A stretch of 64,000 nucleotides of DNA from an uncultured virus (IMG/VR IMGVR_UViG_3300009418_000017) (taxonomy: Duplodnaviria > Heunggongvirae > Uroviricota > Caudoviricetes): IMG/VR virus record IMGVR_UViG_3300009418_000017, one strand, 5' to 3'. The stretch's first letter is position 1. Each line of letters starts with the position of its first letter. The position numbers and the translations under genes are program-made. Of the stretch, positions 14,826 through 40,634 are shown piece after piece. The notes below the pieces were generated by a model. That model was not told where the DNA came from and searched no databases. It saw nothing but the letters and a program-made list of their open reading frames with translations.

Positions 14826-16511
14826 ATGAGTGAAAGAGTCGTAATAGGCTCGGGAGCCGTCAAAGCCCAGGTCTTCGAGGGCTCGCGTGACGTTGAGCGC
14901 ATCATAAATAAAGCGCTCAGCTACCACGTCTACGGCAGTGAGCACATGAACGAAAAAGGGGCTGCAACGGGATGGGACGGCATGAGCAGCTTTTACTCGT
15001 TCAGGAAGAAACAGTTTCCGGCCGGTTTTGCACGCTCGGTTGTGACGTCTTTGCGCAAGAAGGGTTACAACGTTATATGGAAGCAACGCCAAGCACCGGA
15101 GCCACTGGGCCCACTAAAACCGAAAGTAGATGACTTTCCGGAAGATCCACGTTACAGCTATCAACCTGAAACGGTCAATCGCCTGGTGAAGTACCAAAAA
15201 ATCATTGCGAAAGCAGCAACCGGCGCTGGCAAGTCACGTATAGCACGTTTAGCGCATAAGCGCATCGGCAGAAAGACATTATTTCTAACGACTCGCGGCA
15301 TTTTGATGCACCAGATGAAAGAAGGCTATGAAGAGTCCATCGGTGAAAAAGCGGGAATTGTTGGTGACGGCGAATGGGACGAAGTCAACGGCTTTAACGT
15401 TGGCATGGTGCAAACACTCGCTCAAGCACTGGAGCCGGCTGACCTCAAGAAAGAAACTGAGCGCTACTTCTCCAATAAAGAAGCCGAGCTCGACCGCGAT
15501 GTTGAGCGAATCAAACGAGCTCGCAAGCGTCAGGGTTTTGCGCTTGGCAAAATCATGGACGAGATTGCTGACTATCGTGATAAATTCAATGAATCGCAAC
15601 CAAGCTCTGAAGAAATAGAGAAAATAGTGCGTAAGCGCTATGAGCGCCAAAAAGAGCGTAATGAAAAAGCGCTCAAGTTCTTAGAGACCGTCGACCTTCT
15701 CATCTTAGAGGAGGCGCACGAAACCGGGTCTGATAGCTATTACAAGGTTTGCAATGCGTGTAAAAACGCCATGTACCGCTTGGCACTAACCGGTACCGCC
15801 TTTCAGAAGTCTCAGGCAGAGGATAATATGCGCCTCATGGCCGTCAGCGGCCCAATTGGCATTATCATCAGCGAAAAACTGCTTATTGACCGGGGCATTT
15901 TGGCCACACCGAAGTTTATGTTCCGTGATGTTACGGCGCCGACCAAGCTTTACCGCTCGACGGGTTACCAACGAGCTTACAAATTCGGCATTGTCGAGAA
16001 CCAGTTGCGCAATGAAGATGCGGTTATGCACGCCACACACCTCTCATCGTTCGGTCTGACCTCGATGATGCTTGTTGGCCAGAAGAATCACGGTAAGATC
16101 TTAAAGTCGATGCTTGAAGACGCCGGATTAAGGGCTGAGTTTATCCTGGGCGAAAACAGCCAGAAACAACGCCAGGCTGCGCTCAATAAACTTGGCCAGG
16201 GCAAAATCGATGTATTGATTGGCACGACTATTCTGGATGTCGGTGTTGATGTTCCCAGTGTCGGCGCCGTCTTTCTTCTCGGTGGCGGTAAAGACGAGGT
16301 CAGTCACAGACAGCGTATTGGTCGTGGACTGCGAGCCAAGAAGTCAGGGCCCAACATTTGCTTTGTGTTTGACTATCTCGACCGCAAGAACAAACACCTC
16401 AAAGAGCACGCGGCCACACGCCTTAAAATCATTAAGGATACGCCAGGCTTCAGAGAGAACATTGTCGAAAACCTTGAGCCTGAAAAGTTTGGCTTTGAGA
16501 GGGCTGCGTAA
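14826..16511 (+). CDS. SF2 DEAH-type helicase with coiled-coil insertion
   Basis: ATGAGKS, LEEAH, LTGT, GVDVP, QRIGRGLR. Confidence 0.92.
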   Translation: MSERVVIGSGAVKAQVFEGSRDVERIINKALSYHVYGSEHMNEKGAATGWDGMSSFYSFRKKQFPAGFARSVVTSLRKKGYNVIWKQRQAPEPLGPLKPKVDDFPEDPRYSYQPETVNRLVKYQKIIAKAATGAGKSRIARLAHKRIGRKTLFLTTRGILMHQMKEGYEESIGEKAGIVGDGEWDEVNGFNVGMVQTLAQALEPADLKKETERYFSNKEAELDRDVERIKRARKRQGFALGKIMDEIADYRDKFNESQPSSEEIEKIVRKRYERQKERNEKALKFLETVDLLILEEAHETGSDSYYKVCNACKNAMYRLALTGTAFQKSQAEDNMRLMAVSGPIGIIISEKLLIDRGILATPKFMFRDVTAPTKLYRSTGYQRAYKFGIVENQLRNEDAVMHATHLSSFGLTSMMLVGQKNHGKILKSMLEDAGLRAEFILGENSQKQRQAALNKLGQGKIDVLIGTTILDVGVDVPSVGAVFLLGGGKDEVSHRQRIGRGLRAKKSGPNICFVFDYLDRKNKHLKEHAATRLKIIKDTPGFRENIVENLEPEKFGFERAA

Positions 16512-17056
16512 TGGCTCTCAGATTTGGCAAAACAAAGAAAATCGACCTGAGCAAGCTGACAGCGAGAGAAATCACCTCTCGCTTTCACACCATTATCGGC
16601 CAAAAACACTACGAGTCGTGCTATCCAAACGTTGTTCTCGACGAATGGGGTGAGCTCGATATCCTGGCTTTTCGAAAGTCAGGTTTTGCTGATGAGTTTG
16701 AGGTGAAAATAAGCCGCTCCGACTTCAAGCAGGACTTCAAAAAGACCTGCCATTTCGAAAGGCGTGGAGACGACACGCGCAGAAAGCACAGAAACCCGGT
16801 TCGCGACAAACACGGCTGTCTTGAGGCCGGAGACTGTCTGCCCAACTATTTCTGGTTTGTGACTCCCAAGGGGCTCTTAAAACCCGAAGAGATTCCGGAA
16901 TACGCCGGTCTTATCGAAGTCAGTGAGCTCGGCATCCCACACTTCATAAAGTCGGCGCCGAGACTGCACAGGCACAAGCTCGACCCGGAGAGACGGTACT
17001 ACATTGCTCGAAAACTAAGCTTTCGGTACTGGGATATGATAAAAAAGAGTTTTTAG
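16511..17056 (+). CDS. PD-(D/E)XK nuclease, MmcB-like
   Basis: ELDILA...EFEVKISRSDFKQD...YFWFVTP...PEYAGLI. Confidence 0.75.
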   Translation: MALRFGKTKKIDLSKLTAREITSRFHTIIGQKHYESCYPNVVLDEWGELDILAFRKSGFADEFEVKISRSDFKQDFKKTCHFERRGDDTRRKHRNPVRDKHGCLEAGDCLPNYFWFVTPKGLLKPEEIPEYAGLIEVSELGIPHFIKSAPRLHRHKLDPERRYYIARKLSFRYWDMIKKSF

Positions 17057-17094
17057 GGGTTTACACGGTATCTAAATGCTGAGATACTATTTCC

Positions 17095-17248
17095 AGTTCA
17101 ACAACATGACGACCTGTTGAGCCATTTGAATTCTCCACAATTCAGACGTATTACCAAGTCCTTTTGGTTAATTTTAAATCAGAGCCTTGCTTTGTGCACC
17201 GCGCACACTAGCTGAATGAAGCCCCTTTCGCCATGAGGGGCTTTTTTT
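17095..17248 (+). ncRNA. Putative structured small RNA (operator-controlled) with split antisense to the shared leader
   Basis: Promoter TTTACA(17060)-N17-GATACT overlapped by an operator; four hairpins; CCTTGCTT and GCTGAATG; terminator 17219-17248. Confidence 0.55.
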
Positions 17249-21429: not shown

Positions 21430-21552
21430 TGTAAAATTCCTTCTGTTGCTTGCTTGTTTGCTGAATGTTGTTGAGCGATTTGCTGTCTCGCTTCAACGGT
21501 TTCTATATTACAGTGCTGAGATAGGGGAGCAAGCGAAGTTAAGAACTTAAAT

Positions 21553-21665
21553 CCCTACGCTTTCTAGCTCTACTCCAAGGACGCCTTGGTTTATACAGAA
21601 CCAGTGGACGACAGGCATTCCTACGCTAACGCAGCCAGTCCTAAAACCTGCCTTGGCAACCTTGA
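21553..21665. repeat. Second CCAAGG/CCTACGCT repeat block
   Basis: CCAAGGACGCCTTGG 21575-21589; CCTACGCTAACGCAGCC 21620-21636. Confidence 0.8.
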
Positions 21666-21734
21666 ACCGGGTGAGAAACAAAAAAGGGCGACCGAAGCCG
21701 CCCAAACTTGCAGTGACAAGTTAAAAGACTCTGA

Positions 21735-21983
21735 TTAACGCTCGACCTCTGCGTAAACGTCCGAATCAACGTCCTGGCCAATTTCTTTCACAATATCGGT
21801 AGGAATAGGCATCAGAAACTGAATTTTTCGTGAAATTCCGTCTTCAAACAAAACGTTTAAATGCTCTCCACCAACATATTTAATCTCCACCGGCTCCTGA
21901 GTAAACTGCTCTAACATTCGTCCGTCCACCAGATACGGTGTGGTGGTTTTCTTCATCACGTTTTTAAGGTGTTGTAGTTTCAT
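21735..21983 (-). CDS. Hypothetical protein
   Basis: GAGG RBS; terminator hairpin at ~21680-21703 downstream. Confidence 0.65.
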   Translation of the reverse strand: MKLQHLKNVMKKTTTPYLVDGRMLEQFTQEPVEIKYVGGEHLNVLFEDGISRKIQFLMPIPTDIVKEIGQDVDSDVYAEVER

Positions 21984-21990
21984 TCTTACC

Positions 21991-22323
21991 TCACAGTGTT
22001 ATTTCTAAAAGTTCAAATTCGAAGCTGTTGGGTGAAATGTGGTATTCAAAACCGAAGCTATCATCCAGTGCGTTTATCTCTAATGGCTTGAACACCTCCA
22101 AAGCGTTACGAGAAAACATTGCCTTGATGTAACCCTTAAGCGTCAGCCCTGCGTCACCCGCTTCTTCACGCCAGTCTTTCTCCAGGTTTGGAGTGTGCTT
22201 CATAAGCCTTACCATAAGCTCGGGCAACGTATCTCTGTCATCGAGATCGGCAGAAAAGGTGTGCTTGTTCTCCGCATTTTCAATGTCTATCAAAACCAGC
22301 GTCTGTTGTGATTTAAGGTTCAT
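21991..22323 (-). CDS. Hypothetical protein
   Basis: Shared leader and operator (22358) upstream. Confidence 0.7.
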   Translation of the reverse strand: MNLKSQQTLVLIDIENAENKHTFSADLDDRDTLPELMVRLMKHTPNLEKDWREEAGDAGLTLKGYIKAMFSRNALEVFKPLEINALDDSFGFEYHISPNSFEFELLEITL

Positions 22324-22509
22324 TACTCGTTCTCTCTTGCTTGCTGAATGTGAGTGTATATTACAACACTGAAATAGGCACTCAACAGCTTATCATAAAC
22401 TATTTACCTCACAGCCGGCTTGGAATAGGAATAATTGTTTAGTCATTCGCTTGAACGCCTTTGTGTCAGTGTCATAATACACACTCATTCATAAAGAGAG
22501 AGAAAAACA

Positions 22510-22761
22510 ATGTCTGAAAAAGAGCCGAATTTCCTACGTGAAATCATGCAAGTGTTTATCCCGTCTACTCACAAATTTTATGAATTGAACGAGTTTGAGG
22601 ACGGGAGCTTTAAAATTACTGAGCAAACGATTGATGAAAAAATTGTAACAATTGAAGAAGCCGACCTTGTTGACTTCTACGGCGGCAAAACAATCAACTC
22701 TTACGAGAGTAAAGAAGAAGCTGTTGAGCAATTTAAGGAGCTGACATTCTCACAAATCTAA
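22510..22761 (+). CDS. Acidic hypothetical protein, stand-alone moron-like unit
   Basis: Promoter TTGAAC(22451)-N16-CATAAT with TGn extension; terminator GCGGCC-TTCG-GGCCGT-TTCTTTTTT. Confidence 0.7.
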   Translation: MSEKEPNFLREIMQVFIPSTHKFYELNEFEDGSFKITEQTIDEKIVTIEEADLVDFYGGKTINSYESKEEAVEQFKELTFSQI

Positions 22762-22857
22762 GCAAGCGGCCTTCGGGCCGTTTCTTTTTTGTCAGCCGGC
22801 ACCAAGGAAGCCTTGGTATGAGTGGATTAAACAAAAAAGCGGCCGAAGCCGCCTTTC

Positions 22858-23079
22858 TCAGTCCGTTAATACATAGCAGTGCCAATAATCTCTCAAACTC
22901 ACCTCTGCAATGCTCTGATAACTTCTCATCATGGAAAAGTAATCATCCAGGTTATAAATAACGGCTTCAGGATGCTCAACCTCAACCGGCTCTTGGGTTA
23001 AGAAACTGGTTCCATCAAGCTCTTCTGCCTGTTCAAGCGTGTATTCGCTCTTAGGGAGTAATACAATTGTTGTTGCCAT
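22858..23079 (-). CDS. Hypothetical protein
   Basis: Last gene of a coupled operon; terminator 22833-22851. Confidence 0.6.
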   Translation of the reverse strand: MATTIVLLPKSEYTLEQAEELDGTSFLTQEPVEVEHPEAVIYNLDDYFSMMRSYQSIAEVSLRDYWHCYVLTD

Positions 23080-23081
23080 AA

Positions 23082-23333
23082 CTAATCCTTACCGATATTG
23101 ACGTAAGTGACCCAAACCGTATCCAGGTCAATCGCCTCATCGTTACAGTCGTCCATAAACTGCGACAGAGTCATCACCTGAATATCGCAACACAGCGTAT
23201 TACCTTCTTTGTTCACCGTCTCAGCAACCGCCTGAATGCTCTCAAACGGTCTGTCCTGGATTAGTTCGGCCACAGCCCGACCATCATTCACCCGAGCGGT
23301 TGGAATCAGTACTATATGCTTCTCAGACATCAC
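23082..23333 (-). CDS. Hypothetical protein, probable paralog of 22858..23079
   Basis: Both have N-terminal IVL(L/I)P and C-terminal W..YV. Confidence 0.6.
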   Translation of the reverse strand: MMSEKHIVLIPTARVNDGRAVAELIQDRPFESIQAVAETVNKEGNTLCCDIQVMTLSQFMDDCNDEAIDLDTVWVTYVNIGKD

Positions 23334-23592
23334 GCTTCTCCTCTCTGGCCTTCACCCAACCGTAATGGTCGGCTATCGCCCTTAAAATGTTCAAAATCTC
23401 TTCTTCGCCTTTGAAAAATCCAAAGATCGAATTGCCATGCTTAGATTGAATGTACCCCTCTAAAGCATTCACCCGATAAAAGCTGCCCTCCGGGTATTCC
23501 TCAGACAAAAACCGCCAAAAATCTGTCTCTACCATCGGAATGTTAGACGGATTGCCAGCCTTCATTTCTTCAAGAATTTTCTCTCTGTCCAT
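23323..23592 (-). CDS. Hypothetical protein
   Basis: Tightly packed operon ORF. Confidence 0.6.
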   Translation of the reverse strand: MDREKILEEMKAGNPSNIPMVETDFWRFLSEEYPEGSFYRVNALEGYIQSKHGNSIFGFFKGEEEILNILRAIADHYGWVKAREEKRDV

Positions 23593-23595
23593 AGC

Positions 23596-23838
23596 CTACA
23601 CCGCTGATAGTTCGTAAATAACATGACCCTCACGCTCAGCCCAATCGACTAAGTGACGAGTCACCTCTGTCCAGTTCTTAGGAGCCGGTTTATCGCTTGG
23701 CCAACCGTCTCCTGCCCAAATCTCTTCCAGCTCTTCACCGTTATTCCAGTCACCGGCGATGAGAACGTTCGAGCTCTCATCCCAGTCACCAAAACAACTG
23801 ATCCGGTGGCCACGATAGGTAATGACTGTTTTACTCAT
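23596..23838 (-). CDS. Hypothetical Trp-rich protein
   Basis: ATGA-coupled, GGAGG RBS. Confidence 0.6.
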   Translation of the reverse strand: MSKTVITYRGHRISCFGDWDESSNVLIAGDWNNGEELEEIWAGDGWPSDKPAPKNWTEVTRHLVDWAEREGHVIYELSAV

Positions 23839-24101
23839 GACGCCTCCGGATCGAAGTTAATGAACAGGTCGGCCACACTCTCGATAGCCACCCACATTTC
23901 ATCAACGGTAAAGTCCTGGTAAGACTCAGCCGGTACCAAGTCACCGAAGTCGTTTGAACCATCGGGCATTTCATAAAGGGTCTTCAATGCCTGGTCAGCG
24001 GTTACCTCGTGCTCGGCAGGATTGTCACTGTCAGACACATTGTTGAAGAATAAAAGGAGTGAGCGCTTGTTGTAGGCTTCACGTATTTCATTGGCTGTCA
24101 T
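23835..24101 (-). CDS. Hypothetical protein (start revised to MTANE)
   Basis: GGAG RBS, shared leader and operator (24137) lie inside the longer called ORF. Confidence 0.65.
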   Translation of the reverse strand: MTANEIREAYNKRSLLLFFNNVSDSDNPAEHEVTADQALKTLYEMPDGSNDFGDLVPAESYQDFTVDEMWVAIESVADLFINFDPEAS

Positions 24102-24269
24102 AATAGACTCCACTTGCTGTTGCTGAATGTGCTTATATATTACATTGCTGAGATAGGCACGCAATAGCGACCGTTTATTCATATTCCTGCATAACTATCC
24201 ACTATTTAAAACAAACCCTCGGGGATTTTTCTCGAAAACTGCATACCTACCCACACAAAGTGAATAAAA

Positions 24270-24590
24270 CCCAAGGATTCCACGCATAAATACCCTATAC
24301 AAACCCAAACCAACCAAGGACGCCTTGGATTAAACCCGACCTGCAGGTAACAGCCGGCCAAGGACTCTACATTCCTATGCTTTCATAGCCTTTCCCAAAT
24401 TCTGACAGCCAAGGCTCTCTACAAACCTATGCTAACGCAACCAGTCCTGAATTCTGCTATAACTCCCTCACTCAATGTCGTTCCAAGAGCTTCACAGGCA
24501 CGAGAACACGTCTAAAAGGGAAAACCTAAGCAACCATACCACCCAAGGGCTTACAATCGCTTACAGAGCGTGTCAGGCTTCCTTGGTTCA
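24270..24590. repeat. Third CCAAGG/CCTATGCT repeat block
   Basis: CCAAGGACGCCTTGG 24314-24328; CCTATGCT.. 24374, 24426; several CCAAGG half-sites. Confidence 0.75.
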
Positions 24591-24661
24591 ATCCCACAAG
24601 GGCTGGCAGTTATGTTTATCACCGACTGTTGCTCACCACCGGCTGCGTGTTACTATAAACA

Positions 24662-24737
24662 CCGTCATGAAGAGCTGATTACTCTTTTTGATTATTTTAA
24701 GCTGTATTAGCCCTGGCCTCACGGTCGGGGCTTTTTT
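24662..24737 (+). ncRNA. Putative trans-antisense sRNA against the leader of gene 19359..20036
   Basis: Promoter TTGCTC(24629)-N16-TACTAT with TGn; terminator AGCCCTGGCC-TCAC-GGTCGGGGCT-TTTTT; body 24678-24707 matches 20041-20075. Confidence 0.65.
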
Positions 24738-24889
24738 ATGGGTATAAGAAAAGACAGTTGGTAAATTTTTTTTGGAAATTTTGCGAGCGCCTGGTTTCCG
24801 GCTGTTTGTGCGTGTCCTGACTGGCCTGGGATTTTTTGGGTATAAAAGTTTGAGGGTCGCGCCCAATTTTTTTGTGAGGGAGCGCGTTC

Positions 24890-25520
24890 AACTAAACTCG
24901 TGCCTACTCCAATCACTCACTATCTGCCTACTCTCTCAATCTCCTCTCTATACACTCGTGCCTACTCACATCATTCTCAATCGCCTACTTTCTCATTCAA
25001 CAATCAATACACTCCTATTCTACCTACTCACGCTCTCTCCCTTCATTCTCCCAATGTACACGTTATGCCTAATCACTCTCTCTATACACGTAAGCTCTCT
25101 TCTCTCCATAAGCATGAGCTCTCCCTGTACCTGTGTGAACGTTTGTTCTTCTCCGTGTGTTTCTTTGTTTTGTTTTATCGTTAGCTCCTTTACTCCTTAT
25201 GATTGTTTGTTCATCCCTCCTAATGTTCGTTGTCCGTGTGAAATGTTTTTACTTTTATCGTTAGTTCCTGTCGGTCAGAACCGTTCTCCGGCTGTTACCT
25301 TTGATTGTTTTGTATTATTGATAGCCGAGAGTTTTTGAAATTGTTTGAGGCATTTGTGTTTTGTGTAGCCTGGGTGTTTGTTGGACTTGTTTTGTGAACG
25401 GGTTATTCCTGTGTTTTGTATAGTGAGCCGGGTGTTTGCTTGTGTTTGTGAAGGGAATGCTGTGCTGAGCTTATGAGACGCTTATTTGCTTGGTTTTGTT
25501 TTGTGTTGTGAGTCAGAATG
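24890..25520. other. Strand-skewed non-coding region, candidate replication origin
   Basis: G-poor tract with GCCTACT repeats (24902, 24926, 24960, 24983) switching to a T/G-rich tract. Confidence 0.5.
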
Positions 25521-25559
25521 AGAAAAGCCGACTCTAGGCCGGCTCTGTTAGGCTCTCAA

Positions 25560-25766
25560 TCATTCAAAGTCTCCCTCGAAAATAGCTCTTTTGTTGACTC
25601 TGTCCGTGACAATGTCTACTCCGCCTGTGCTATACGGGTCGGCCTTGCATTTTTTGAAATATGATACTGCCTTCTTCTTGTCGGTCGTTCGACCGGCGTA
25701 AGTGCCTTGACCTCTTCCATCGGCGCTTGAGCCGTCATAGAGTAGGTGCCAGGTTTCTTCAATCAT
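25560..25766 (-). CDS. Hypothetical protein
   Basis: Coupled operon end; hairpin 25526-25544 downstream. Confidence 0.6.
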   Translation of the reverse strand: MIEETWHLLYDGSSADGRGQGTYAGRTTDKKKAVSYFKKCKADPYSTGGVDIVTDRVNKRAIFEGDFE

Positions 25767-25971
25767 TGTGCACCTCTAAAGCTTTCACTCTTTGACGTAG
25801 AGAGTTCACCTCTTTTAGTGCTTCATCACGCTCTTTCTCAAGCTTTGCCCTAAGCTCTTTGCAAAAATGAACGTGGCTGGCGTACTTGATGTACTTGCCT
25901 TGTTTGTGAATCTCCATAGACTCACCGTCAAAGCCTCTGATATCTCTCGATGTACAGTTAAAACGTTTCAT
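25759..25971 (-). CDS. Hypothetical protein
   Basis: Operon ORF with C-terminal coiled coil. Confidence 0.55.
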   Translation of the reverse strand: MKRFNCTSRDIRGFDGESMEIHKQGKYIKYASHVHFCKELRAKLEKERDEALKEVNSLRQRVKALEVHND

Positions 25972-25983
25972 TGCCTATTCAAC

Positions 25984-26592
25984 TCACTGTCTAAAAAAGT
26001 TCACCGGATGGATCTGGTAAACGCCGCCAAACTTTTTCATGAACTCAATGGCGTCATCTTCGCAGAGAAAAGTCTCCATGACGTTACCCATATAGGTAAC
26101 TTCATAGTAATGTTTTTGGTTGCGTAACTGCTCTAACTTATCTGACAACTCTTGAGTCTGTTCGGTGGAGGCGATTGTCTCACCCTTCTTTGAGAAGTTG
26201 TCTTTGAAGTATTCAGCGGCAACTAGCCACTGGTCTTCATGGTTTTTTGGATTGCGAGCGATCATGTCTCCGATTTTAGGAGAGCCCTTCAACTTGTCTT
26301 CGCTCGATATGCTGATATTGGCAGCAAGCGTCTCGCCAGGCACGTAAGGTCGCATTTCGGCCACGTTTGTTCGGGTGTATTGTTCAAACTTACTTTCGAG
26401 AAGAACCCCTGCGTCGATTAACTTTTGATGCGCCATTCTCTCGGACTGATCAACTCGACCGGCCTCCAACTGTCTCAAAGCGTCTTCTGGCGATTCTGGC
26501 TCCGAATAGGCGCCGTCTTTTGAGCTCATTACGCTCTTGGCGAATTCAAACGCCTCTTCCAACGTTGTATCTTTCCCTTCCATATCTATCAC
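25984..26592 (-). CDS. Mosaic phage hypothetical protein
   Basis: Central AEMRPYVPGE...GSPKIGDMIARNPKNHEDQWLVAAEYF domain typical of phage accessory proteins. Confidence 0.65.
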   Translation of the reverse strand: MIDMEGKDTTLEEAFEFAKSVMSSKDGAYSEPESPEDALRQLEAGRVDQSERMAHQKLIDAGVLLESKFEQYTRTNVAEMRPYVPGETLAANISISSEDKLKGSPKIGDMIARNPKNHEDQWLVAAEYFKDNFSKKGETIASTEQTQELSDKLEQLRNQKHYYEVTYMGNVMETFLCEDDAIEFMKKFGGVYQIHPVNFFRQ

Positions 26593-26639
26593 TCTCTTTG
26601 AATGTTCTGAAACGAGGTTACTTAGGTCAGAAATGCCCT

Positions 26640-26951
26640 CTACTCACCCATACTTTCTAGCGCTTTACAGACTGCCTCGTAAGGTTCACAGCCCAAACCT
26701 TGCTTATGATGGGTTCTACAGGCGTACTTGGCTTTTATGAGTGCTTGCTTCGTCTCTTCCGCCTGAGTCTCCAGCTCTTCAATCCGGCGCTGTTGCTCTT
26801 CGATGTGTTTGTCCACCACCGATATACCGCCTATGTAAACGCCGTTGTCGCCTTCATCAATGGCGTATATGTGATCAGCTGCATTAAACTTCTTCATCAA
26901 CTTGCTCCTTTGGCACTGATAACTCCAACGTTCTGAACTCGTAAATTTCAT
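26640..26951 (-). CDS. Hypothetical protein
   Basis: Operon ORF; start uncertain (overlaps neighbour). Confidence 0.5.
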   Translation of the reverse strand: MKFTSSERWSYQCQRSKLMKKFNAADHIYAIDEGDNGVYIGGISVVDKHIEEQQRRIEELETQAEETKQALIKAKYACRTHHKQGLGCEPYEAVCKALESMGE

Positions 26952-27222
26952 TCTCAGTAATCTGCTCCGGCTCGATTAAGGCAGTTACGAGCAATTCAAT
27001 TGCCTGGTTGAATCCGGCTCTTAACTTCTCTAAGTCCGAGCTTCTTTTACTGTAGGCAGAACTGAGCTCCTGGTTTTTCTTCTTCTCGATGACAACCTGC
27101 CGCTCTAACTCTTCAATGTCATTGGCCGCTTGGAGTAGTTTATCGGCTGAGCTTGTGCAACCACAATCTTCTTCAGTGGCGTGTTTTCTCAACTCTTCTG
27201 GTGTAATTCTGCTCATACTCAC
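26884..27222 (-). CDS. Hypothetical coiled-coil protein
   Basis: Coupled operon ORF. Confidence 0.55.
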   Translation of the reverse strand: MSMSRITPEELRKHATEEDCGCTSSADKLLQAANDIEELERQVVIEKKKNQELSSAYSKRSSDLEKLRAGFNQAIELLVTALIEPEQITENEIYEFRTLELSVPKEQVDEEV

Positions 27223-27425
27223 TCCATCGGTCTCAAAATGGTTGTTTGAAAGTGCGTGGTCTCCCGATCATTCTCGAAAGACCGCACTACCGCCTTCTTA
27301 TCGCTTGGAATGTCTATTACTTCTCCGAGAAAGAAGCGCTTAGCCTTAGAACCGGCGTGTATGGTATTAATGGTGTAGACGGTATCGCCTACACTCAAAG
27401 GGTTGCCGTGAATGTCATTCATCAC
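27219..27425 (-). CDS. Small SH3-like phage protein
   Basis: DIHGNPLSVGDTV motif. Confidence 0.6.
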   Translation of the reverse strand: MMNDIHGNPLSVGDTVYTINTIHAGSKAKRFFLGEVIDIPSDKKAVVRSFENDRETTHFQTTILRPME

Positions 27426-27894
27426 TGTTCACCAATTTTCTTATTTCTTCTTTAAGGTGTTCAACTTCAATCACGTCAAATGGGCCAGAGGCGCTTGCCT
27501 GGCCAATTGTTCTTGAGTGATTTTCAATAACGCTCTTGGCAAACTCCCGAACTGCCTCTTTCTTCACCTTTTCCAGAGAGAGCTCAGGTATAGAGCCGAG
27601 CACCTCATCCATTTCACCCTCAAAGTCGGCATTAAAATCGACACTTTGGTGATACTTAAAACAATCATCTATGTTTTTCAGATGAGCTTTGAGGCTGACT
27701 ACCTCAAGCCTAGCCTCTTCAAGATGCTCCACCGGACGTTTGCCGTCTAAACGCCCGACCACAGTGTAGAATGAGCCGTAATTTGAACCGTAGTGTTGCT
27801 CCAGGTAATTCGGTGCACCACTTTCAAGAAACGCCTCGAATAACAAGGCGGCTGCACTGTTGCGCTCTTCATCAGTGATCACTTCTTTAGCCAT
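27415..27894 (-). CDS. Hypothetical protein (probable start MAKEV)
   Basis: GGGGG RBS before ATG overlapping the upstream stop region. Confidence 0.6.
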   Translation of the reverse strand: MAKEVITDEERNSAAALLFEAFLESGAPNYLEQHYGSNYGSFYTVVGRLDGKRPVEHLEEARLEVVSLKAHLKNIDDCFKYHQSVDFNADFEGEMDEVLGSIPELSLEKVKKEAVREFAKSVIENHSRTIGQASASGPFDVIEVEHLKEEIRKLVNSDE

Positions 27895-28573
27895 TGAGCG
27901 CCCCCTGACTTGAGCCGGATACCTGTTTGTCCAGATTTGCGCTGCGACCTGCATTGACGCCCTTCATATAGGCACCGCTTTCTTGCATCGAAGGTTGACG
28001 ATGACTGCGACTGAACGTTTTTAGCTTACCAAAGTGCTGCTCAATCATCTTTTGCTTCATTGGAATGAGCTCGGTACCTGTTTCGGTAACCATATCCTTC
28101 TCACGCTCACGCTTTATCTCCATAATGCGAGTGTTTATCTCGGTAGCGAAGCCTAAGCGGAAGAAGTTTCGCTCAGAAGCGCCTACTGCATCGGAAAGAT
28201 TAACCTGACGCTCACACTCCTGAACTAAGTAGTCCATCGTGAGCTTGGCCACCACTGCATCTGATGTGAAACCCTGAAAGCGATACTCAACTTCAGGCCG
28301 GCTTGTAACCACTGATGTGCAATCGTTCAGCTGACCAACCGCTGATGCCAGGTAAAGCATCCATGTTTTGCGCTGTCTGGTCACTGAGTCAGCTTTCGTT
28401 TCAAGAAACTGGCTAAGCTCAGACTCCTGAATGTCTTCTTTAGAGAGTTGGTGTTTATCCATCAACTTGCGAGCCTTACGTGCGGCAATCATTGCCTCGT
28501 TCGGGCTGCTTGTGTCTTCCGCCATAGCCAGGAGCTTGCGGATTTTATCAATAACTTTGTCGTTATCACTCAT
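27887..28573 (-). CDS. DUF2786-domain protein
   Basis: DKIRKLLAMAED...PNEAMIAARKARKLMDKHQL; C-terminal GVNAGRSANL. Confidence 0.8.
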   Translation of the reverse strand: MSDNDKVIDKIRKLLAMAEDTSSPNEAMIAARKARKLMDKHQLSKEDIQESELSQFLETKADSVTRQRKTWMLYLASAVGQLNDCTSVVTSRPEVEYRFQGFTSDAVVAKLTMDYLVQECERQVNLSDAVGASERNFFRLGFATEINTRIMEIKREREKDMVTETGTELIPMKQKMIEQHFGKLKTFSRSHRQPSMQESGAYMKGVNAGRSANLDKQVSGSSQGALNG

Positions 28574-28580
28574 AACTATT

Positions 28581-28657
28581 ACCTTGCTTTTTGCTGAATG
28601 TATTTCAATTATGACATACGAAAATAGGCGCTCAAGAGCGCCCTTAATTTAATTGCC
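28581..28657 (-). promoter_or_regulatory. Representative promoter/operator/leader cassette (also ~30431, 33400, 34391, 36685, 37684, 38840, 40176, 42681, 50712)
   Basis: Minus strand: GGCAATTAA - hairpin with -35 TTGAGC - GCCT - operator containing -10 CATAAT - ACATTCAGCAA..GCAAGG - ATG. Confidence 0.85.
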
Positions 28658-28975
28658 TTCGACAACATGAGTAACAGGCTTGCCAAGCATACTGATGGTT
28701 TTCAGTATCTCACCTGGTGTTGCGTACTGAAGCTGCTCAGACCGCCCCTCTCTAACGTATCGATAAACAGACATCGTCCGCCAATCCGGATGCTTTCTGT
28801 CACTGCAAAGCTTCCATTTGGCACTATTGTTTTCACGCCTGAACACATCTAGCCAAGCCGAGTTGTGACCGTTTATGTTGTAACAGGTTGAAGCTCTTAT
28901 TTTCACCTGAGAGCCGTCTTCTCGGGTTATTAAAGCTTCAACCTCGCTTACCAACTTTTCTTGATCTTCACTCAT
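28649..28975 (-). CDS. Hypothetical protein
   Basis: Coupled ORF ending in cassette-derived GN*. Confidence 0.65.
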   Translation of the reverse strand: MSEDQEKLVSEVEALITREDGSQVKIRASTCYNINGHNSAWLDVFRRENNSAKWKLCSDRKHPDWRTMSVYRYVREGRSEQLQYATPGEILKTISMLGKPVTHVVEGN

Positions 28976-29235
28976 GCCGTGTAATACCCCAACTTTTTAT
29001 CGAAACGCCTAAGAAAATCGGGTACCACCTCCAACGTGCCGGAATTCATTTTTTCAATGACCGAGTCAGACATACCCATCAGACAGTCGAGCACTTCTTC
29101 ATCGCCAAAGGCTTCAAAGTTTTGATTGATTTTGGGCAAAATAGTCAGCGTCTCGTTGATATTGCAGCGAATCCAAATGCCTTTCATTATCTCACCAACA
29201 AAGGCGTGACAGCCTTCTTCATTGTCATAAGGCCC
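28972..29235 (-). CDS. Hypothetical protein (start approximate, near MGPY)
   Basis: GGAGG RBS near the end of the upstream gene. Confidence 0.45.
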   Translation of the reverse strand, partial: GPYDNEEGCHAFVGEIMKGIWIRCNINETLTILPKINQNFEAFGDEEVLDCLMGMSDSVIEKMNSGTLEVVPDFLRRFDKKLGYYTA

Positions 29236-29590
29236 CATACAAACCTCCAAACTCTTCTTCGATTCCATGATAGTCAGCAAATTCCCATGAAGCTAAAGCG
29301 TTACCCTTAATCTCTTCGACTTTCGGGTGGGCGCGTGACGCCTTTAGAAGTTCAATCATTGGCTCGGTCATAGGTAAGCGGCAACTTTTCTGAATTGAAA
29401 AGAAAAGACCCGTACACGGCTCGGGATTAACCACCTCGCCGGAGTGATCGTGCTCGCTTCTCATGTGACATGGGATAACCGTTTCTGCATTAATCGCGTG
29501 GCGGTATATACCTGGGTCGTTTCCACCAAAATAACCACTAGCAGATCCCTTTTGATAAGGGCATTCTTTGCATGGACTTTTGCAACTCAT
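29225..29590 (-). CDS. Cys/His-rich metal-binding phage protein
   Basis: PCKECPY...PCH...PCTG pattern. Confidence 0.65.
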   Translation of the reverse strand: MSCKSPCKECPYQKGSASGYFGGNDPGIYRHAINAETVIPCHMRSEHDHSGEVVNPEPCTGLFFSIQKSCRLPMTEPMIELLKASRAHPKVEEIKGNALASWEFADYHGIEEEFGGLYGAL

Positions 29591-29847
29591 AAATCCAACT
29601 CTCCCTCTAAAATAAGCTCGATTTTTTCAATCTCTTTCTGATCTGGTAAGTGATCGCACTCCATAACTGCGATACTCATAATCGGTGTATGGTAATGTTC
29701 GTGAAAACTCCAACCCTTCGGGTACTCAAGAGAGCTAAGGCGCTCAAAATCTGGATTATCAGCGCTTTCGAACTCTTTCTCTGGCTCCTCGGCTTCGTAT
29801 GAGAACGGAACCCGAATGTAGCCACAAAATTCGGCATTTATGGACAT
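29587..29847 (-). CDS. Hypothetical acidic protein
   Basis: Coupled ORF. Confidence 0.55.
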   Translation of the reverse strand: MSINAEFCGYIRVPFSYEAEEPEKEFESADNPDFERLSSLEYPKGWSFHEHYHTPIMSIAVMECDHLPDQKEIEKIELILEGELDL

Positions 29848-30188
29848 AACTGCTCCTTCAGACTTGCCTCTATCTTTTCAAAACTAATCTCGCTAGGAGA
29901 ACCGTAATAGCCTATGGAAAGTGACAGTCCGGCGTGTCCAAACAGTATGTCAACGTTCTCCAAAACATACCCTTCAGGCATACGGAGATCTCTTAGGTCG
30001 AGGTCGTGAGTCACCGAAACTGCATCAAACAAAACCTCCACCTTGAGAGTCACGCTACCTCTATTCACTACTATCGACATCGTGTCACCCCAAAATCTCT
30101 CAGGTTTATGGCCACGTCTTCTCGCAAGTCGCAGCCTTTTAGAAAGGCTTTCAGCCACAGCGAACGACCCTCCGGATCGAATCGCCAT
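29838..30188 (-). CDS. Hypothetical protein
   Basis: Operon ORF. Confidence 0.5.
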   Translation of the reverse strand: MAIRSGGSFAVAESLSKRLRLARRRGHKPERFWGDTMSIVVNRGSVTLKVEVLFDAVSVTHDLDLRDLRMPEGYVLENVDILFGHAGLSLSIGYYGSPSEISFEKIEASLKEQLCP

Positions 30189-30227
30189 AACCAGCGAAAC
30201 GCCTGATACCGGCTCATCGCTGTCACT

Positions 30228-30425
30228 TTAAGCATTGGAACCTCTGTCAGTGATAACGCACGAATCCAACTTGAAGCGCTCCTGCCAAACCGCCCCGCAC
30301 TCCATGCACGAACACTCTTGGTGAGCTGCTATTTGAGAGACCTCAACGAATCCACCATCCACGCTTTCTTTGCCGCATACAGGGCAAACATCGGCATCGT
30401 TTCTTGCCACTTCTTGTTCTTTCAT
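30228..30425 (-). CDS. Zinc-ribbon protein
   Basis: CPVC...CMECGAVW; cassette upstream. Confidence 0.7.
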   Translation of the reverse strand: MKEQEVARNDADVCPVCGKESVDGGFVEVSQIAAHQECSCMECGAVWQERFKLDSCVITDRGSNA

Positions 30426-30513
30426 TTTAAACCTCGCTTGCTTGCTGAATGTATCTCAATTCTGACATATCGAGATAGGCACACAAGAGCTAATAAGCAA
30501 TTAATTGCCTACA

Positions 30514-31032
30514 TTAACCCTTGTGATTTTTCACTATTTTTAGTATCTCTTTCGCCTCAGATACCTGTTTGTCGAGCCGGTTGCGCTCTTCTCTCACTGA
30601 GTATAGTAATTCTCTGAGGTCGAGAGCGTTGTGCATGGCGTCGTGGTAGCTCGTGATGCTGTCAGCTCGGTATTGGAAAGAGAAGTTCTTGTAATTGTTC
30701 TGAGAGAAGGCCAGGCGCAACGCTATGCGCTTTTTCTTGACCGTTATATTGGTGGTGTCGGTGTTAACGATAATGCCGTAGGACTCTGGCAACTCGTAAC
30801 CTAAAGACTCGATCAATTTGCCAAGCTCATTAATGCTGAGCTGATTGCTTGCTCTTTTCACCAACGAACTTTCTTTTTTGCCGCCCTCTAAAGGCTCCAG
30901 AAACTTCCATGATGAGCGATGCGCTTGATTAAAGAGCGAATGCTCATCTACTAAGACCACGCCAGTGCAAACAACAACTGTCTCTCCGGTTGGTATGTGA
31001 ATAAGCTTCTGCTCCAGTCGTCTGCCTCCCAT
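30514..31032 (-). CDS. Hypothetical protein (start revised to MGGRR)
   Basis: Shared leader and GAGG RBS at 31039-31057. Confidence 0.55.
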   Translation of the reverse strand: MGGRRLEQKLIHIPTGETVVVCTGVVLVDEHSLFNQAHRSSWKFLEPLEGGKKESSLVKRASNQLSINELGKLIESLGYELPESYGIIVNTDTTNITVKKKRIALRLAFSQNNYKNFSFQYRADSITSYHDAMHNALDLRELLYSVREERNRLDKQVSEAKEILKIVKNHKG

Positions 31033-31122
31033 CCTTAGCCTCGCTATTTGCTGAATGATAATAAAAAAGCTTGAGTGCTTATTCTGACATTGCGAATAAG
31101 GCACTCAAGCTTTCGGGTTTAA

Positions 31123-31533
31123 TTAATTACCTTCAATCAAAAAGTCTTCGAGTTTATTTTGACCACTTTCGATGCTCTGCTTGATAACATCTGGAATACG
31201 ACCCTGACCAGTCCAAGTCTGCCGGTCTCCATTAGAGTCTTTGTATTCGTATTTAGGCGGCAATTTCTGGCTCTGCTTTCTAACGCTTTTAGCTTCAACC
31301 AAGTCATCAACGGTAAGCCCTGCTGATTTCAATTGTTGATTGAATTCTTCTATCTTTTTAAGCTTTTCACGTTGGGCTTCGAGCTTCTGCTCATTCTCCA
31401 CATGAATATCTGAGAAACATTCATTCACTTTGCTTTGCAATTGATCAAGGGCTTGTTCGTCCAATTGTCTCAAGTATTTCTTAAAACGATGCTTGTTGGA
31501 AATGATGCTTTCGAATTCTTCAAATTCCGACAT
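31123..31533 (-). CDS. hns: H-NS family nucleoid-associated protein
   Basis: PPKYEYKDSNG...TWTGQGRIP signature; N-terminal coiled coil. Confidence 0.9.
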   Translation of the reverse strand: MSEFEEFESIISNKHRFKKYLRQLDEQALDQLQSKVNECFSDIHVENEQKLEAQREKLKKIEEFNQQLKSAGLTVDDLVEAKSVRKQSQKLPPKYEYKDSNGDRQTWTGQGRIPDVIKQSIESGQNKLEDFLIEGN

Positions 31534-31584
31534 AAATGTTACCTATTTGTTGCTAGCTGAATAATCTAGGCCGTAGCCTATTTT

Positions 31585-32262
31585 TCAAAATACCACATCA
31601 AAAAGTTTCGGTCTCCCCCTGCTCTCAATATCCTTTTCAAAATAATATCGCTCAGAAGAAGGGGAATTTTGACAGGCTTTATACCACTCAACAGCATCCT
31701 CAAATTTTGCCATTATCAATGAGGCTGAACTGTTCTTTATGCTCACTTCCTGGCCAGTATTTTCATACATCCAGTCCACAGCCATAGCCGGTGTCACTTG
31801 AGATATGTGATAAGTCTGGTAATCAAAGGAGCCTGAATACTCTTCAGATATTTCATTCATTGTATCTGCGAAGGCATTCAACACAATTTGGCAAGAATCT
31901 AATGCGGGATGGCCAGGTGTCGTTCTATCCATGAACTGATACATTCTTTCAATTACCTTTCGGCTAATCTCATGAAACAGATCACCATAAATGTGCTGAC
32001 CCAAAGCACGAGCTATTCTTTGCTCAACAGTGGGACCTTCATCACTGTAATCATCCTCAATGAACTGAACAATAAAACGGATCTCTGCTTTTCTAACAAT
32101 GTCCATTCTAATTGTTTGTTCACCAACATTTCTCGCATCCCTTGTTAGAAAAGCGGCAGTCTCACCTTCCGGCGCTCTTCTTTTCATACGTCTTTCATTG
32201 CAAACCTTTGCGTTTTGGGCGAGATTCATTAAAACGTTTGCAATACCGCTAGACTCTTTCAT
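31585..32262 (-). CDS. Hypothetical protein
   Basis: 225-aa coupled ORF. Confidence 0.6.
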   Translation of the reverse strand: MKESSGIANVLMNLAQNAKVCNERRMKRRAPEGETAAFLTRDARNVGEQTIRMDIVRKAEIRFIVQFIEDDYSDEGPTVEQRIARALGQHIYGDLFHEISRKVIERMYQFMDRTTPGHPALDSCQIVLNAFADTMNEISEEYSGSFDYQTYHISQVTPAMAVDWMYENTGQEVSIKNSSASLIMAKFEDAVEWYKACQNSPSSERYYFEKDIESRGRPKLFDVVF

Positions 32263-32597
32263 TTTAAACGAAACCTTTTTGCTTTAATTACTTTGCCATT
32301 AGCCATAACTGAGAAAACGATAGCACCCTCACTCTCGAAAACGTCAATATCCAATACTTCTTCGAGCAATTCAGCGAGCCCCTGCTTTTTCTCTTCTCGC
32401 TCACGCTCCTCAGCCAACTCTTCTTCTCTGACTTCTTTTTGGCGCTGACGAATTCTAAACGCCTCTTCTCGATAAGCTTCTTCGTATGCTTCTTGAAGGT
32501 GAGACTGTTTGTATTTCACCTCCGGATCAACTTCAGGGCACCCGTCAAGGCGCCCCTGTCTTCTTGCGTGTGAAGGGCTAGTCGGCATTGTCATCAC
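32259..32597 (-). CDS. Hypothetical protein
   Basis: Coupled ORF. Confidence 0.55.
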   Translation of the reverse strand: MMTMPTSPSHARRQGRLDGCPEVDPEVKYKQSHLQEAYEEAYREEAFRIRQRQKEVREEELAEEREREEKKQGLAELLEEVLDIDVFESEGAIVFSVMANGKVIKAKRFRLK

Positions 32598-33393
32598 CGA
32601 CAGATTCTTTCGAACTTTTTAGCGCCTGTTCGTAGACAGCTAAACCGACATTGGCATACAAGTCGCCATGCGCAGCCGCCTCTTTCATCACTTCAGGGTC
32701 AAACTTTTCAACATTGCGATCAGACCCAACCACAAGCCAATGACTTTGAACGGTATTTGGTGAAATGAAGTGTGAAAACCTAGCGTTCTTTATCTTTTCA
32801 AGGTCAATGAGAAGATCAGCCGGCTCCAAGCTATCTGTTGGCCTTTCTTCCTTTCCTCTGTCGAGCTCATTAACGAAAATGAGTGGCATATAGTGCTGCA
32901 TACTATTCAGGTCGTCTCGATTCATAATCTCAACCGCGTCCTCTGTTTGATCAACAGCAGCTTTCATGGCCAACTCAACTCTACTAACTTCTCTTTCCTG
33001 GCACCGCTTAAACAATTTATCGAATGGTGTGTAGAAGAATAAGCAGCTGCGATGACCATAGAATTCGACATCCGGCCTGGCCTGAACGTAATGAACGTTG
33101 TAGAAGCTTAGGTTTTCAGATACCAGGTGACCAAAGTCGTCACAGGCAAAGTGGTGAACATCATCGATGTCCAAAATGACGAAAGTGCCATGCTTAGACT
33201 TAACGACAAAAAAGACATTGCTGTCAGGGTTGTCATCAAAAAAGCTGTTCATTACACCAACCGCATCATTTTCGTTGGTTACATAAAACAACGGATTGGT
33301 ATTTGGGTCTTCGATAATCTCTGTGCACTCATGGTTAGTGTAATCCAGAATGCTCTTCTCCAAGTTAACGACTGCAAGTATTACTCGTGACAT
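32578..33393 (-). CDS. Hypothetical protein (start revised to MSRVI)
   Basis: Cassette at 33400-33440 lies inside the longer called ORF. Confidence 0.65.
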   Translation of the reverse strand: MSRVILAVVNLEKSILDYTNHECTEIIEDPNTNPLFYVTNENDAVGVMNSFFDDNPDSNVFFVVKSKHGTFVILDIDDVHHFACDDFGHLVSENLSFYNVHYVQARPDVEFYGHRSCLFFYTPFDKLFKRCQEREVSRVELAMKAAVDQTEDAVEIMNRDDLNSMQHYMPLIFVNELDRGKEERPTDSLEPADLLIDLEKIKNARFSHFISPNTVQSHWLVVGSDRNVEKFDPEVMKEAAAHGDLYANVGLAVYEQALKSSKESVGDDNAD

Positions 33394-33484
33394 AATCATT
33401 TCCTGCTTTTTTTGCTGAATGTATTTCAATTTTTACATACCGTAGAAGGCATACAAGCGGCGCCTCAATAAAGACGCCACTGAC

Positions 33485-33817
33485 TTAAAAGGCGTAAACG
33501 TCTTCGCTGTCCAGTTCGTAAGACTGAATGTCAGGCATTCGATCTCGAACAACTGCACCCCAGTCAACGTGGCAAAATATGTAGCCAGGAATCTCCACAC
33601 CTTGCTCGTCGAGTTCCTCTTGAACCTTTTTCTTAAGAGCTTCATCGCCAACAACAAAGTACTCTTCGTGATAGCACTCGATCTCTTCCCAAAACCGCTT
33701 CACCTCTTCGTACTCATCATCTTCTTCATCAAGCCAGTCTAAGAGAAGCTCCACATCCTTCTTGTTAAAAGAGCCGCCACTGGTCAAGTCACTGATACAC
33801 TGAAAATCACCAAACAT
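33485..33817 (-). CDS. Highly acidic protein, ArdA-C-terminal-like (possible DNA mimic)
   Basis: D/E-rich; IPGYIFCHVDWGAVVRD resembles the ArdA YIDYEAIARD segment. Confidence 0.5.
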   Translation of the reverse strand: MFGDFQCISDLTSGGSFNKKDVELLLDWLDEEDDEYEEVKRFWEEIECYHEEYFVVGDEALKKKVQEELDEQGVEIPGYIFCHVDWGAVVRDRMPDIQSYELDSEDVYAF

Positions 33818-33820
33818 AAC

Positions 33821-34201
33821 TCACCCCACTGCGTAGAATTGATAACCGAAACACTCATAGCCTGAACTCGACTTCAAACCTGGCTCTTTCCTGAGCCGGT
33901 ACTCATAAAAGTTAATGAGGTCGATAAGCTCCGCATCATCCTCATCCTCTTCATCAAGCCCGAGCCGGTTTAGCAGCTCATATTTGAAATGCTCTTCAAT
34001 GGCCTCGACCGTAATGAAGCGCTCTCTACCGTCACTTTCAACCTTAGCCGTGATAGCTTCAGCTTCTTTGTACTCTTTATGGTCAACGCCAACGTCACCG
34101 GCTAACCAATGAAGTGCTTCTTTCATCTGAGACAGCGTAAACTTTGGCTGAGTCAGAACTTCGTCAAACGACATCGGTGGATTTGCTTCATCAAACGTCA
34201 T
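33821..34201 (-). CDS. Acidic hypothetical protein (probable start MTFDE)
   Basis: GGAGG RBS; LDEEDEDDAEL. Confidence 0.55.
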   Translation of the reverse strand: MTFDEANPPMSFDEVLTQPKFTLSQMKEALHWLAGDVGVDHKEYKEAEAITAKVESDGRERFITVEAIEEHFKYELLNRLGLDEEDEDDAELIDLINFYEYRLRKEPGLKSSSGYECFGYQFYAVG

Positions 34202-34385
34202 CACGACCTCCGTACAGCTCCGTGTGCTGTTTTTCTTGCGACTGAGTGTCATTGGGTAGGGCTAGCTGACTTCTTCCCGCATTTTGCTTTGCCGCAATCA
34301 CAGTGAGCTCGCCACGTCGAGACCCTTCAATCTGGCTACCGCCAAACATCGAGTCTATTTGCTTCTCCACATCGCTTAAGTTCAT
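34191..34385 (-). CDS. Small protein resembling a DnaB-helicase P-loop fragment
   Basis: IDSMFGG...RRGELTVIAAKQNAGRS; first gene after cassette 34391. Confidence 0.55.
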   Translation of the reverse strand: MNLSDVEKQIDSMFGGSQIEGSRRGELTVIAAKQNAGRSQLALPNDTQSQEKQHTELYGGRDDV

Positions 34386-34481
34386 CTAAAACCTCGTTTG
34401 CTGCTGAATGTATTTACATAATGACATACAAAAATAGGCAAACAAGCGCTTTCAAACACTTATTTGCCTATGGTGGTGGAT

Positions 34482-34829
34482 TTACTTAACGGCTAAAACA
34501 AGAGTGTCTTTACCGTCATCGACCATCTTCAACTCTTTGCCTTCAGTATTCTCCGGCGTTGGAATTGGAAGCTTCAGTTCGCCGCCCTGAGATTCGACCG
34601 CTAACTTCAACATATCAGCCAGGTTCTTTCGCTTGGCGTCTGCATCAGTCACCTTCTGTTCAAGGTCTGACTTTTGGCTGTCGAGCTCATTGAACTCTTT
34701 GGATACAAACTGAAACATGGCGCCGACATTCAAAACACCGTCACCAGGCAAACCCAACATACTCACTGGAAGTGACACTTGAGACTGGCAAAGGTCTCGG
34801 ATAATTGCGTAATTGTCTACTCTACTCAA
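34482..34829 (-). CDS. Hypothetical protein
   Basis: Operon ORF. Confidence 0.6.
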   Translation of the reverse strand: MSRVDNYAIIRDLCQSQVSLPVSMLGLPGDGVLNVGAMFQFVSKEFNELDSQKSDLEQKVTDADAKRKNLADMLKLAVESQGGELKLPIPTPENTEGKELKMVDDGKDTLVLAVK

Positions 34830-36123: not shown

Positions 36124-36144
36124 TTAAACCTCACTCTTAGCATT

Positions 36145-36678: not shown

Positions 36679-36761
36679 GTTGTTACCTTGCTTGTTGCTG
36701 AATGTATTTCAATTTTGACATACAGTTTTAGGCAGTCAATACCGAACAAGACAAAAATTGC

Positions 36762-37677: not shown

Positions 37678-37753
37678 TGCTTAACCTTTGTTGCTTGCTG
37701 AATGTATCTACATAGTGACATACGAAAGAAGGCACGCAAGTGCGTGCCTCAAA

Positions 37754-40627: not shown

Positions 40628-40634
40628 AGTCACC

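Follow-up and report, generated by a model that had tools for sequence, protein, structure and literature searches.

A predicted non-coding RNA of ~153 nt, here called RNA A, follows the helicase operon of an SSU5-like phage-plasmid and is most plausibly an operator-repressed, trans-acting antisense RNA that would block translation of the element's repressor and so feed back positively into lysis. We give this reading, which is derived from sequence comparison, a probability of roughly 60%. Coordinates refer to the window, the whole stretch of 64,000 nucleotides that was analysed. A sequence-only reading of positions 17060-17248 had proposed an inducible anti-leader RNA that could shut early genes off; it was partly right, and the main function is most likely a different one.

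RNA A and the element that carries it

The window makes up most of a ~102-kb phage-plasmid, and the remainder of the genome was taken from the nearest virus record, G001. Within the window, matches to PHROG families cover head, tail, replication and nucleotide genes. Consistent with membership of the SSU5-like group, the element carries siphovirus structural genes, rep, iterons, parA, cobS/cobT and a helicase homologous to those of the group (the G001 part supplies the Rep initiator with iterons, parA, cobS/cobT and a DNA ligase). The helicase beside RNA A is 41-47% identical to helicases of SSU5, Cyrano and Aeromonas/Acinetobacter elements, and its nearest relatives are 84% and 69% identical (P0002/P0003). 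The sequencing runs with a high share of the element's DNA were marine metagenomes; none of the 8 runs listed was an RNA data set, which has no bearing on expression. Two long stretches of the window (18080-19340 and 20130-20860) lack convincing genes and contain direct repeats and short palindromes, possibly marking a lytic origin or further RNAs. An H-NS-like gene (31123-31533, - strand) lies amid the early genes.

The features of RNA A and its surroundings are the following (SD, Shine-Dalgarno).

14826..17056, + strand: upstream operon with the helicase gene (14826-16511) and a 181-aa phrog_2776 gene (16511-17056); own operator at 14780
17060..17088, + strand: predicted sigma-70-type promoter, TTTACA (17060-65), 17-nt spacer, GATACT (17083-88), extended -10 TG
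17068..17087, either strand: operator palindrome, one mismatch to the element's consensus, over the spacer and -10
17095..17248, + strand: predicted non-coding RNA A, ~153 nt, presumed to start 7 nt 3' of the -10
17096..17122, + strand: hairpin 1, arms 17098-103 and 17115-120 (TCAACA/TGTTGA), its 3' arm pairing with codons 2-4 in both the repressor gene and the AcrVA2-like gene
17125..17146 (stem-loop 17127-144), + strand: hairpin 2, whose loop CUCCAC is the anti-SD seed
17153..17168, + strand: hairpin 3, loop UCCU
17115..17186, + strand: anti-repressor domain, complementary in co-linear order to positions -72 to +11 of the repressor mRNA
17185..17192, + strand: box CCTTGCTT, complement of the leader's SD-containing AAGCAAGG, with a small energetic contribution
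17193..17207, + strand: hairpin 4, between both boxes
17208-18, + strand: string CTAGCTGAATG, following hairpin 4
17211..17218, + strand: box GCTGAATG, complementary to the word CATTCAGC with which the early, parA and AcrVA2-like mRNAs are predicted to begin
17219..17248, + strand: intrinsic terminator, common to RNA A and the helicase operon
17099..17198, - strand: look-alike with a promoter-like TGCACA-16-TAAAAT (17198-17171), an SD and a frame of 12 codons whose start resembles that of the repressor

Promoter, operator, hairpins, boxes and terminator were all located where the sequence-only reading had placed them. The promoter TTTACA-N17-GATACT is overlapped by the operator at 17068-17087 as it had claimed, and this operator fits, with one mismatch, the consensus GTAT[CTG]TCA-N4-TGA[AG]ATAC. 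Sites matching this consensus with up to 1, 2 and 3 mismatches numbered 16, 23 and 30 in the window, compared with 0, 0.2 and 2.05 in 20 shuffles, the consensus having been derived from the same sites that were later counted. The operators lie over or just behind the promoters of early, replication and late operons, and their position varies between -35, -10 and +1, which fits a repressor site. A related palindrome, RTAAGTCA-N4-TGACTTAY, was present in 25 of 46 related records, where it recurs at matching places, for example 50-70 bases 5' of the helicase. The nrdA promoter (54933-54960) is a near-twin of the RNA A promoter in its promoter/operator layout, which argues for RNA A having its own 5' end near 17095. 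Read-through from the helicase operon would also cover RNA A.

The only frame of RNA A on the + strand is a 4-codon ATG frame without an SD. When 17095-17250 was folded with ViennaRNA, every hairpin named by the earlier reading was predicted (z=-4.08, mostly from the terminator); without the terminator the fold was modestly beyond chance (z=-1.8), with 13 of 200 shuffles folding equally well. At the level of sequence the region combines the attributes of a trans-acting anti-RBS sRNA: its own promoter, an intrinsic terminator, no ORF, and imperfect complementarity, beyond chance, over the SD and start codon of a target. An Rfam 15 search of the window gave seven matches at E<=5, none of them in 17060-17248 and none at gathering score, and a tRNA search returned nothing at RNA A; readings as a tRNA, a C4 RNA or a CRISPR-repeat-like element gained no support from these searches.

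Complementarity to the leader of a putative repressor

The proposed target encodes a 137-aa protein, and its gene adjoins rep. The targeted leader (G001:C1 / L221 10811-10729, - strand) is outside the window, ~47 kb from RNA A on the circle. The protein is the orthologue of Cyrano CYRAN_45, which is annotated 'putative repressor' and which Table 1 of PMC9928086 lists as expressed 10-fold over background in the lysogen. It is XRE/HTH-like by features and model; a fold search listed Stl, lambda and 434 repressor domains, none at E<=0.001, and neither PHROG nor Pfam assigned it to a family. Homologues turned up in 14 of the 18 elements fetched, counting this one, and in 21 of another 47 entries, many of which are fragments. 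Cyrano and Klebsiella relatives carry one, and none was found in bases 1-100,000 of SSU5 (L264-L265). The repressor gene is preceded by a near-consensus sigma-70 promoter that lacks a good operator. We infer that the 137-aa protein binds the operator palindrome; as an HTH repressor without a peptidase family match, it probably needs an antirepressor.

Positions 17115-17186 of RNA A form a co-linear antisense of the whole repressor 5' leader and first codons, with 51 identities in 72 columns (71%). The score of this alignment, 47.5, ranked first among 111 translation starts (next 37.0, mean 25.5) and first among 6,746 genome windows, one unrelated window reaching 46.5, and was matched by 3 of 5,000 shuffles, p-values here being optimistic because the target was first spotted by eye and windows were then chosen around the match. 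The upstream half of the leader, without SD and AUG, also ranked 1 of 111 (24 of 5,000 shuffles), and it is this half that pairs with hairpin 3 and the AU-rich linker at 17169-17186. Each half of the anti-repressor domain points to the repressor separately. Rank 1 was kept in 51 of 72 parameter sets, the worst rank being 9, and in full-leader alignments the element's own repressor leader was the best of 34 repressor leaders.

The relationship was also found in the opposite direction. Out of 3,470 intergenic windows, RNA A complemented the repressor start best, and in a reciprocal test of all 111 starts it was the best intergenic partner of the repressor only; the runners-up were the AcrVA2-like gene (two better loci) and parA (three), and the other 108 starts had at least 10 better loci each. 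Three of 418 other intergenic segments ranked the repressor first, all with a lower score, and 29 of the 418 equalled the alignment score with some start, mostly paralogous promoters and a few AT-rich chance matches. Net co-folding of RNA A with the repressor mRNA from -76 to +45 gave -15.9 kcal/mol, rank 1 of 111, a rank that depends on the interval folded (also 20, 6, 23, 5, 2 and 3 of 111). With co-folding ranks of 2-63 and 9-102, parA and the AcrVA2-like gene are much less secure targets.

For the repressor, parA and AcrVA2-like targets taken together, no shuffle out of 600 came up to the summed energy in either of two schemes, one of which kept the anti-SD. The parA start is matched by the 5' arm and loop of hairpin 2 over 13 bases with one bulge. 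Both the parA and the AcrVA2-like mRNAs start with the leader word and are bound by the two RNA A domains together, at -16.7 and -20.9 compared with -7.8 to -12.7 for single domains. Within the plasmid module, which was defined after the fact, four of the seven called starts were in the top 10 by energy (p=0.001). The AcrVA2-like protein (446 aa, L221:13505-14845, - strand) was assigned to PF26125 by features and structure, and its gene lies in the plasmid module without an operator.

An anti-SD core might equally serve a generic RNA directed mainly against host mRNAs, with the phage matches arising from a common GGAG-N-AUGGC start pattern. Phage sRNAs acting on hosts are described (VpdS and PreS, in the account of PMC12197685), and foreign repressor starts pair equally well with RNA A over the SD and AUG, where 3 of 33 pair better than the cognate start; over the full leader an Acinetobacter-type repressor nearly ties (-15.7 vs -15.9). 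However, the upstream half, without SD and AUG, suffices to select the repressor, and shuffles retaining the anti-SD rarely match, 8 of 600 pairing with the repressor as well as RNA A does. The loops CUCC and UCCU had previously been called anti-SD-like; an anti-SD loop is indeed present, but it is not generic: it sits in the middle of the 72 bases that are antisense to the leader of the repressor mRNA. We consider a primarily host-directed RNA quite unlikely.

Read on the opposite strand, hairpins 1-2 look like a translation start, one that resembles that of the repressor. An old inverted copy of the 5' end of the repressor gene, stranded in the 3' untranslated tail of the helicase operon and largely or wholly without effect on regulation, would fit the co-linear 71% identity; the helicase operon needs the terminator anyway, and the hairpins without it are just modestly better than shuffles (z=-1.8). 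Such a relic nevertheless appears improbable given that a dedicated, operator-covered promoter is directed into the region, that the identity is concentrated at the SD, AUG and codons 2-4, and that the mismatches create hairpins on the + strand, the - strand giving z=0.0. Strain X3 shows 0 substitutions at 17060-17250 compared with 18 over 1,501 bases, a difference that reaches only p=0.09.

Alternatively, the functional transcript could come from the - strand, as a mimic of the repressor leader or as a 12-codon peptide gene expressed from the promoter-like TGCACA-16-TAAAAT at 17198-17171 with its SD and ATG frame. Promoter-like sites are, however, no commoner here than in shuffles (7 vs 7.9), no terminator was called on the - strand, where folding gave z=0.0, and a single inserted base in strains X3 and X4 (the X4 contig having a depth of 2) disrupts the -10 and alters the binding of RNA A little (-15.1 vs -15.9). 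A - strand product is accordingly a very remote prospect, and the antisense reading of the + strand transcript is the one pursued below.

The 3' boxes, the early leaders and RNA B

Two further features bear on the 3' part of RNA A.

21430..59931, - strand: span of early promoters with leaders beginning CATTCAGC (examples at 22350, 24129, 28600, 30451, 33421, 34410, 36704, 37704, 38860, 40195, 42700, 45208, 50731 and 59912)
45281..45345, - strand: RNA B, second anti-leader RNA before a terminator, with a 22-base contiguous complement of early leaders

The window contains 24 copies of the leader word CATTCAGC, compared with 3.15 expected, and in the assembled genome an operator lies <=70 nt upstream of 18 of its 27 minus-strand copies. 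A 5' tag, ACATTCAGC, stands right after the predicted start of ~25 mRNAs (window 21430-59931, - strand), and both RNA A boxes are complementary to ~25 early-gene leaders. The tag looks lineage-specific, since no equally enriched 5' leader word was found in 8 related genomes, G015 alone showing a weak one. A scan of viral contigs for the leader pattern returned 23 single matches, one being a fragment of this element and the rest chance. At window 45877-45939 (- strand) an operator precedes a terminator-like hairpin that runs right up to the ATG of gene 45876 and covers its SD, possibly an attenuator or a very short RNA.

Pairing of RNA A with the early leaders, as put forward in the earlier proposal, is supported by computation: the 3' 82 bases bind 19 leaders with a mean net energy of -14.6 kcal/mol, compared with -5.2 for 86 other starts, and single leaders are bound with up to -20 kcal/mol. 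The proposed split anti-leader rests mostly on one 8-mer, GCTGAATG, the shuffling of which reduced leader binding by 6.6 kcal/mol, to -8.0; shuffling CCTTGCTT cost a mean of 1.4 kcal/mol (-13.2+/-1.2; best shuffle -16.6). Hairpin 4 had been thought to join two anti-leader halves. Both boxes are real, but in free RNA A this last hairpin is lengthened by GCU/AGC pairs that half-cover them, leaving the halves not fully presented, and deletion of hairpin 4 in silico improved leader binding to -18.7. Anti-leader pairing of RNA A is possible, but it is mainly an 8-base contact.

The anti-leader sequence attributed to an RNA at 45.3 kb is present at 45320-45341 (- strand), before a terminator, and 21 of its 21 bases match the leader at 47211. 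This is RNA B, the short form of which binds the same leaders far better than RNA A (-26.5 kcal/mol). No promoter was called for RNA B. In a long form (window 45281-45436, - strand) a 5' leader-like stretch pairs with the RNA's own anti-leader, as it does not in the short form, and net leader binding is -12.7; RNA B is possibly a switch between read-through and processed forms.

These data bear on the view that RNA A is mainly a second anti-leader RNA, one that shuts off early genes after derepression and matches the repressor incidentally. The difference between leaders and control starts speaks for it, as do the position of both boxes in register ahead of the terminator and, in G015, a family RNA (see below) complementary to that genome's enriched leader word. 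Against it, the gain from the first box relative to its shuffles is only ~1.4 kcal/mol, each box is partly base-paired when the RNA is free, RNA B does the leader binding better, and the view offers no account of 90 nt that match the repressor leader at rank 1. We regard the view as unlikely: a predicted operator-controlled non-coding RNA that pairs with leaders stands, but early shut-off is unsupported as its main function.

Relatives, known systems and a proposed model of the switch

DNA searches of phages, plasmids and 220 loci for homologues of RNA A returned the element itself only, hence no covariation; strain X3 covers RNA A with no substitution and one inserted base. Loci of relatives were scanned for an operator, a short non-coding body and a terminator. 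Upstream of terS, 43 of 85 distinct related loci contain an operator-controlled RNA of ~60 nt with an anti-SD core (for example L067:5075-5133, L205:3742-3802 and L116:5285-5343, all on the - strand, and 38 other loci). It has a conserved GGGCG/CGCCC terminator, often with a CUCC loop, and no Rfam match in the 5 loci scanned. This family RNA resembles RNA A in the operator family over its promoter, the anti-SD core and the preference for its own repressor; it differs in locus, in having one third of the length and in its terminator. The pattern was not found in the terS region of this genome, where RNA A instead follows the helicase operon and uses another terminator. A covariance model of the family gave no hit in the window, but the model was insensitive, being without base pairs and also missing the known members L035, L106 and L153.

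In 19 element pairs, with related lineages kept, the terS-upstream RNA preferred its own repressor start over foreign ones (permutation p=0.0007), whereas 10 control genes with 11-19 pairs gave p values of 0.05-0.95; a reduced test of 13 pairs (p=0.0002), for which one member per lineage was picked after the values had been seen, is not relied on. Within 9 genomes the RNA's own repressor ranked only 7th to 77th, with 1-146 better loci, and the best intergenic complement of the repressor start was operator-linked in 0 of 13 relatives. The family RNA backs the antirepressor idea as a tendency, not as proof.

Short promoter-terminator units follow the helicase in 9 of 129 distinct loci, this one included, in a scan that missed L052 and L168. 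For the unit of G005, the one case that allowed the comparison, the repressor ranked 37 of 112, which gives no support for an antirepressor role. Non-coding promoter-terminator units, short and carrying anti-SD words, were seen after the helicase at L052:7821, L168:7987, L112 (~11650-11730), L039/L167 (~260 bases 3' of the helicase) and L062. At L067:12455, L116:12433, L039:11574, L113:5684 and L150:4636 the operator-controlled post-helicase promoter serves a gene for a ~65-aa membrane protein, which has an NPLALL-like motif, in place of an RNA.

The closest parallel in logic is phage P1, in which, as described in PMC8546580, the master repressor C1 acts at ~22 dispersed operators and represses the gene for its own inactivator, Coi. 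The double-negative logic would be identical, and P1 too is a phage-plasmid; Coi, however, is a protein that binds C1, whereas the non-coding RNA A would prevent translation of the repressor. RNA A is accordingly predicted, by analogy, to be an RNA counterpart of Coi. The OOP RNA of lambda similarly pushes towards lysis by antisense silencing of a lysogeny regulator, but in the descriptions of PMC12197685 and PMC7067206 it is encoded in cis, in overlap with the 3' end of cII, and cI is not its target, whereas RNA A is trans-encoded, imperfect and covers the 5' leader of the repressor. Cis-antisense RNAs such as OOP and sar overlap their targets with perfect complementarity; RNA A lies ~47 kb from its target and matches it at 51 of 72 positions.

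C4 of P1/P7 and sar of P22 are phage antisense RNAs that occlude a ribosome-binding site, C4 acting in trans via two loops (PMC12197685, PMC5320573). As those sources present them, they silence antirepressors and favour lysogeny, so that the RNA A model is opposite in sign. Classification of RNA A as a C4 RNA was rejected on structure, as it has tandem unclosed hairpins, no closing P1 stem or three-stem junction and no Rfam C4 match, and also on target, the best one being the putative repressor and not an antirepressor mRNA. VpdS of VP882 and PreS of lambda are Hfq-dependent trans sRNAs that promote lytic growth (PMC12197685); the targets named in that review are host RNAs and other phage genes, and its description of them gives no pairing with a repressor mRNA. 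The antisense RNAs that it covers likewise silence antirepressors, cII or Q, not a master repressor. Our literature search, largely of open-access texts, returned neither a small RNA reported for SSU5-like elements nor a phage RNA that pairs with the leader of its master repressor, a result on which the 38 uncharacterised phage sRNAs tabulated in PMC12197685 could bear.

The comparisons above suggest the following model. In the plasmid (lysogenic) state, the XRE-type repressor, expressed from a constitutive-looking promoter next to rep/parAB, would bind ~30 operators, and its binding to the one over the RNA A promoter would keep RNA A off. Once repression loosens, RNA A would be transcribed. 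The CUCCAC loop of hairpin 2 would catch the GGAG Shine-Dalgarno of the repressor, the weak AU-rich stems would open, and pairing, as computed, would zip through the 72-nt leader and the first codons, after which repressor synthesis would be expected to stop. Such a double-negative loop would act as a self-reinforcing switch to lysis. The 5' domain, aided by the 3' GCUGAAUG box, may also clamp parA and the AcrVA2-like plasmid-state gene, and the 3' boxes may additionally damp early genes as a weaker second job.

SSU5-like phage-plasmids are a widespread group. By-products of this analysis are an operator consensus for the group and a second, widespread RNA candidate, the terS-upstream RNA, that is present in cultured strains such as Chitinibacter tainanensis DSM 15459 and Roseospira marina DSM 15113. 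As a tentative generalisation, SSU5-like phage-plasmids across Proteobacteria might use repressor-controlled small RNAs as RNA antirepressors in a bistable lysis-lysogeny switch, with RNA A as an enlarged form of two domains that additionally clamps mRNAs for plasmid maintenance and recognises a 5' tag common to ~25 phage mRNAs. If true, an RNA silencing the very repressor that keeps it off would constitute a minimal RNA-protein toggle.
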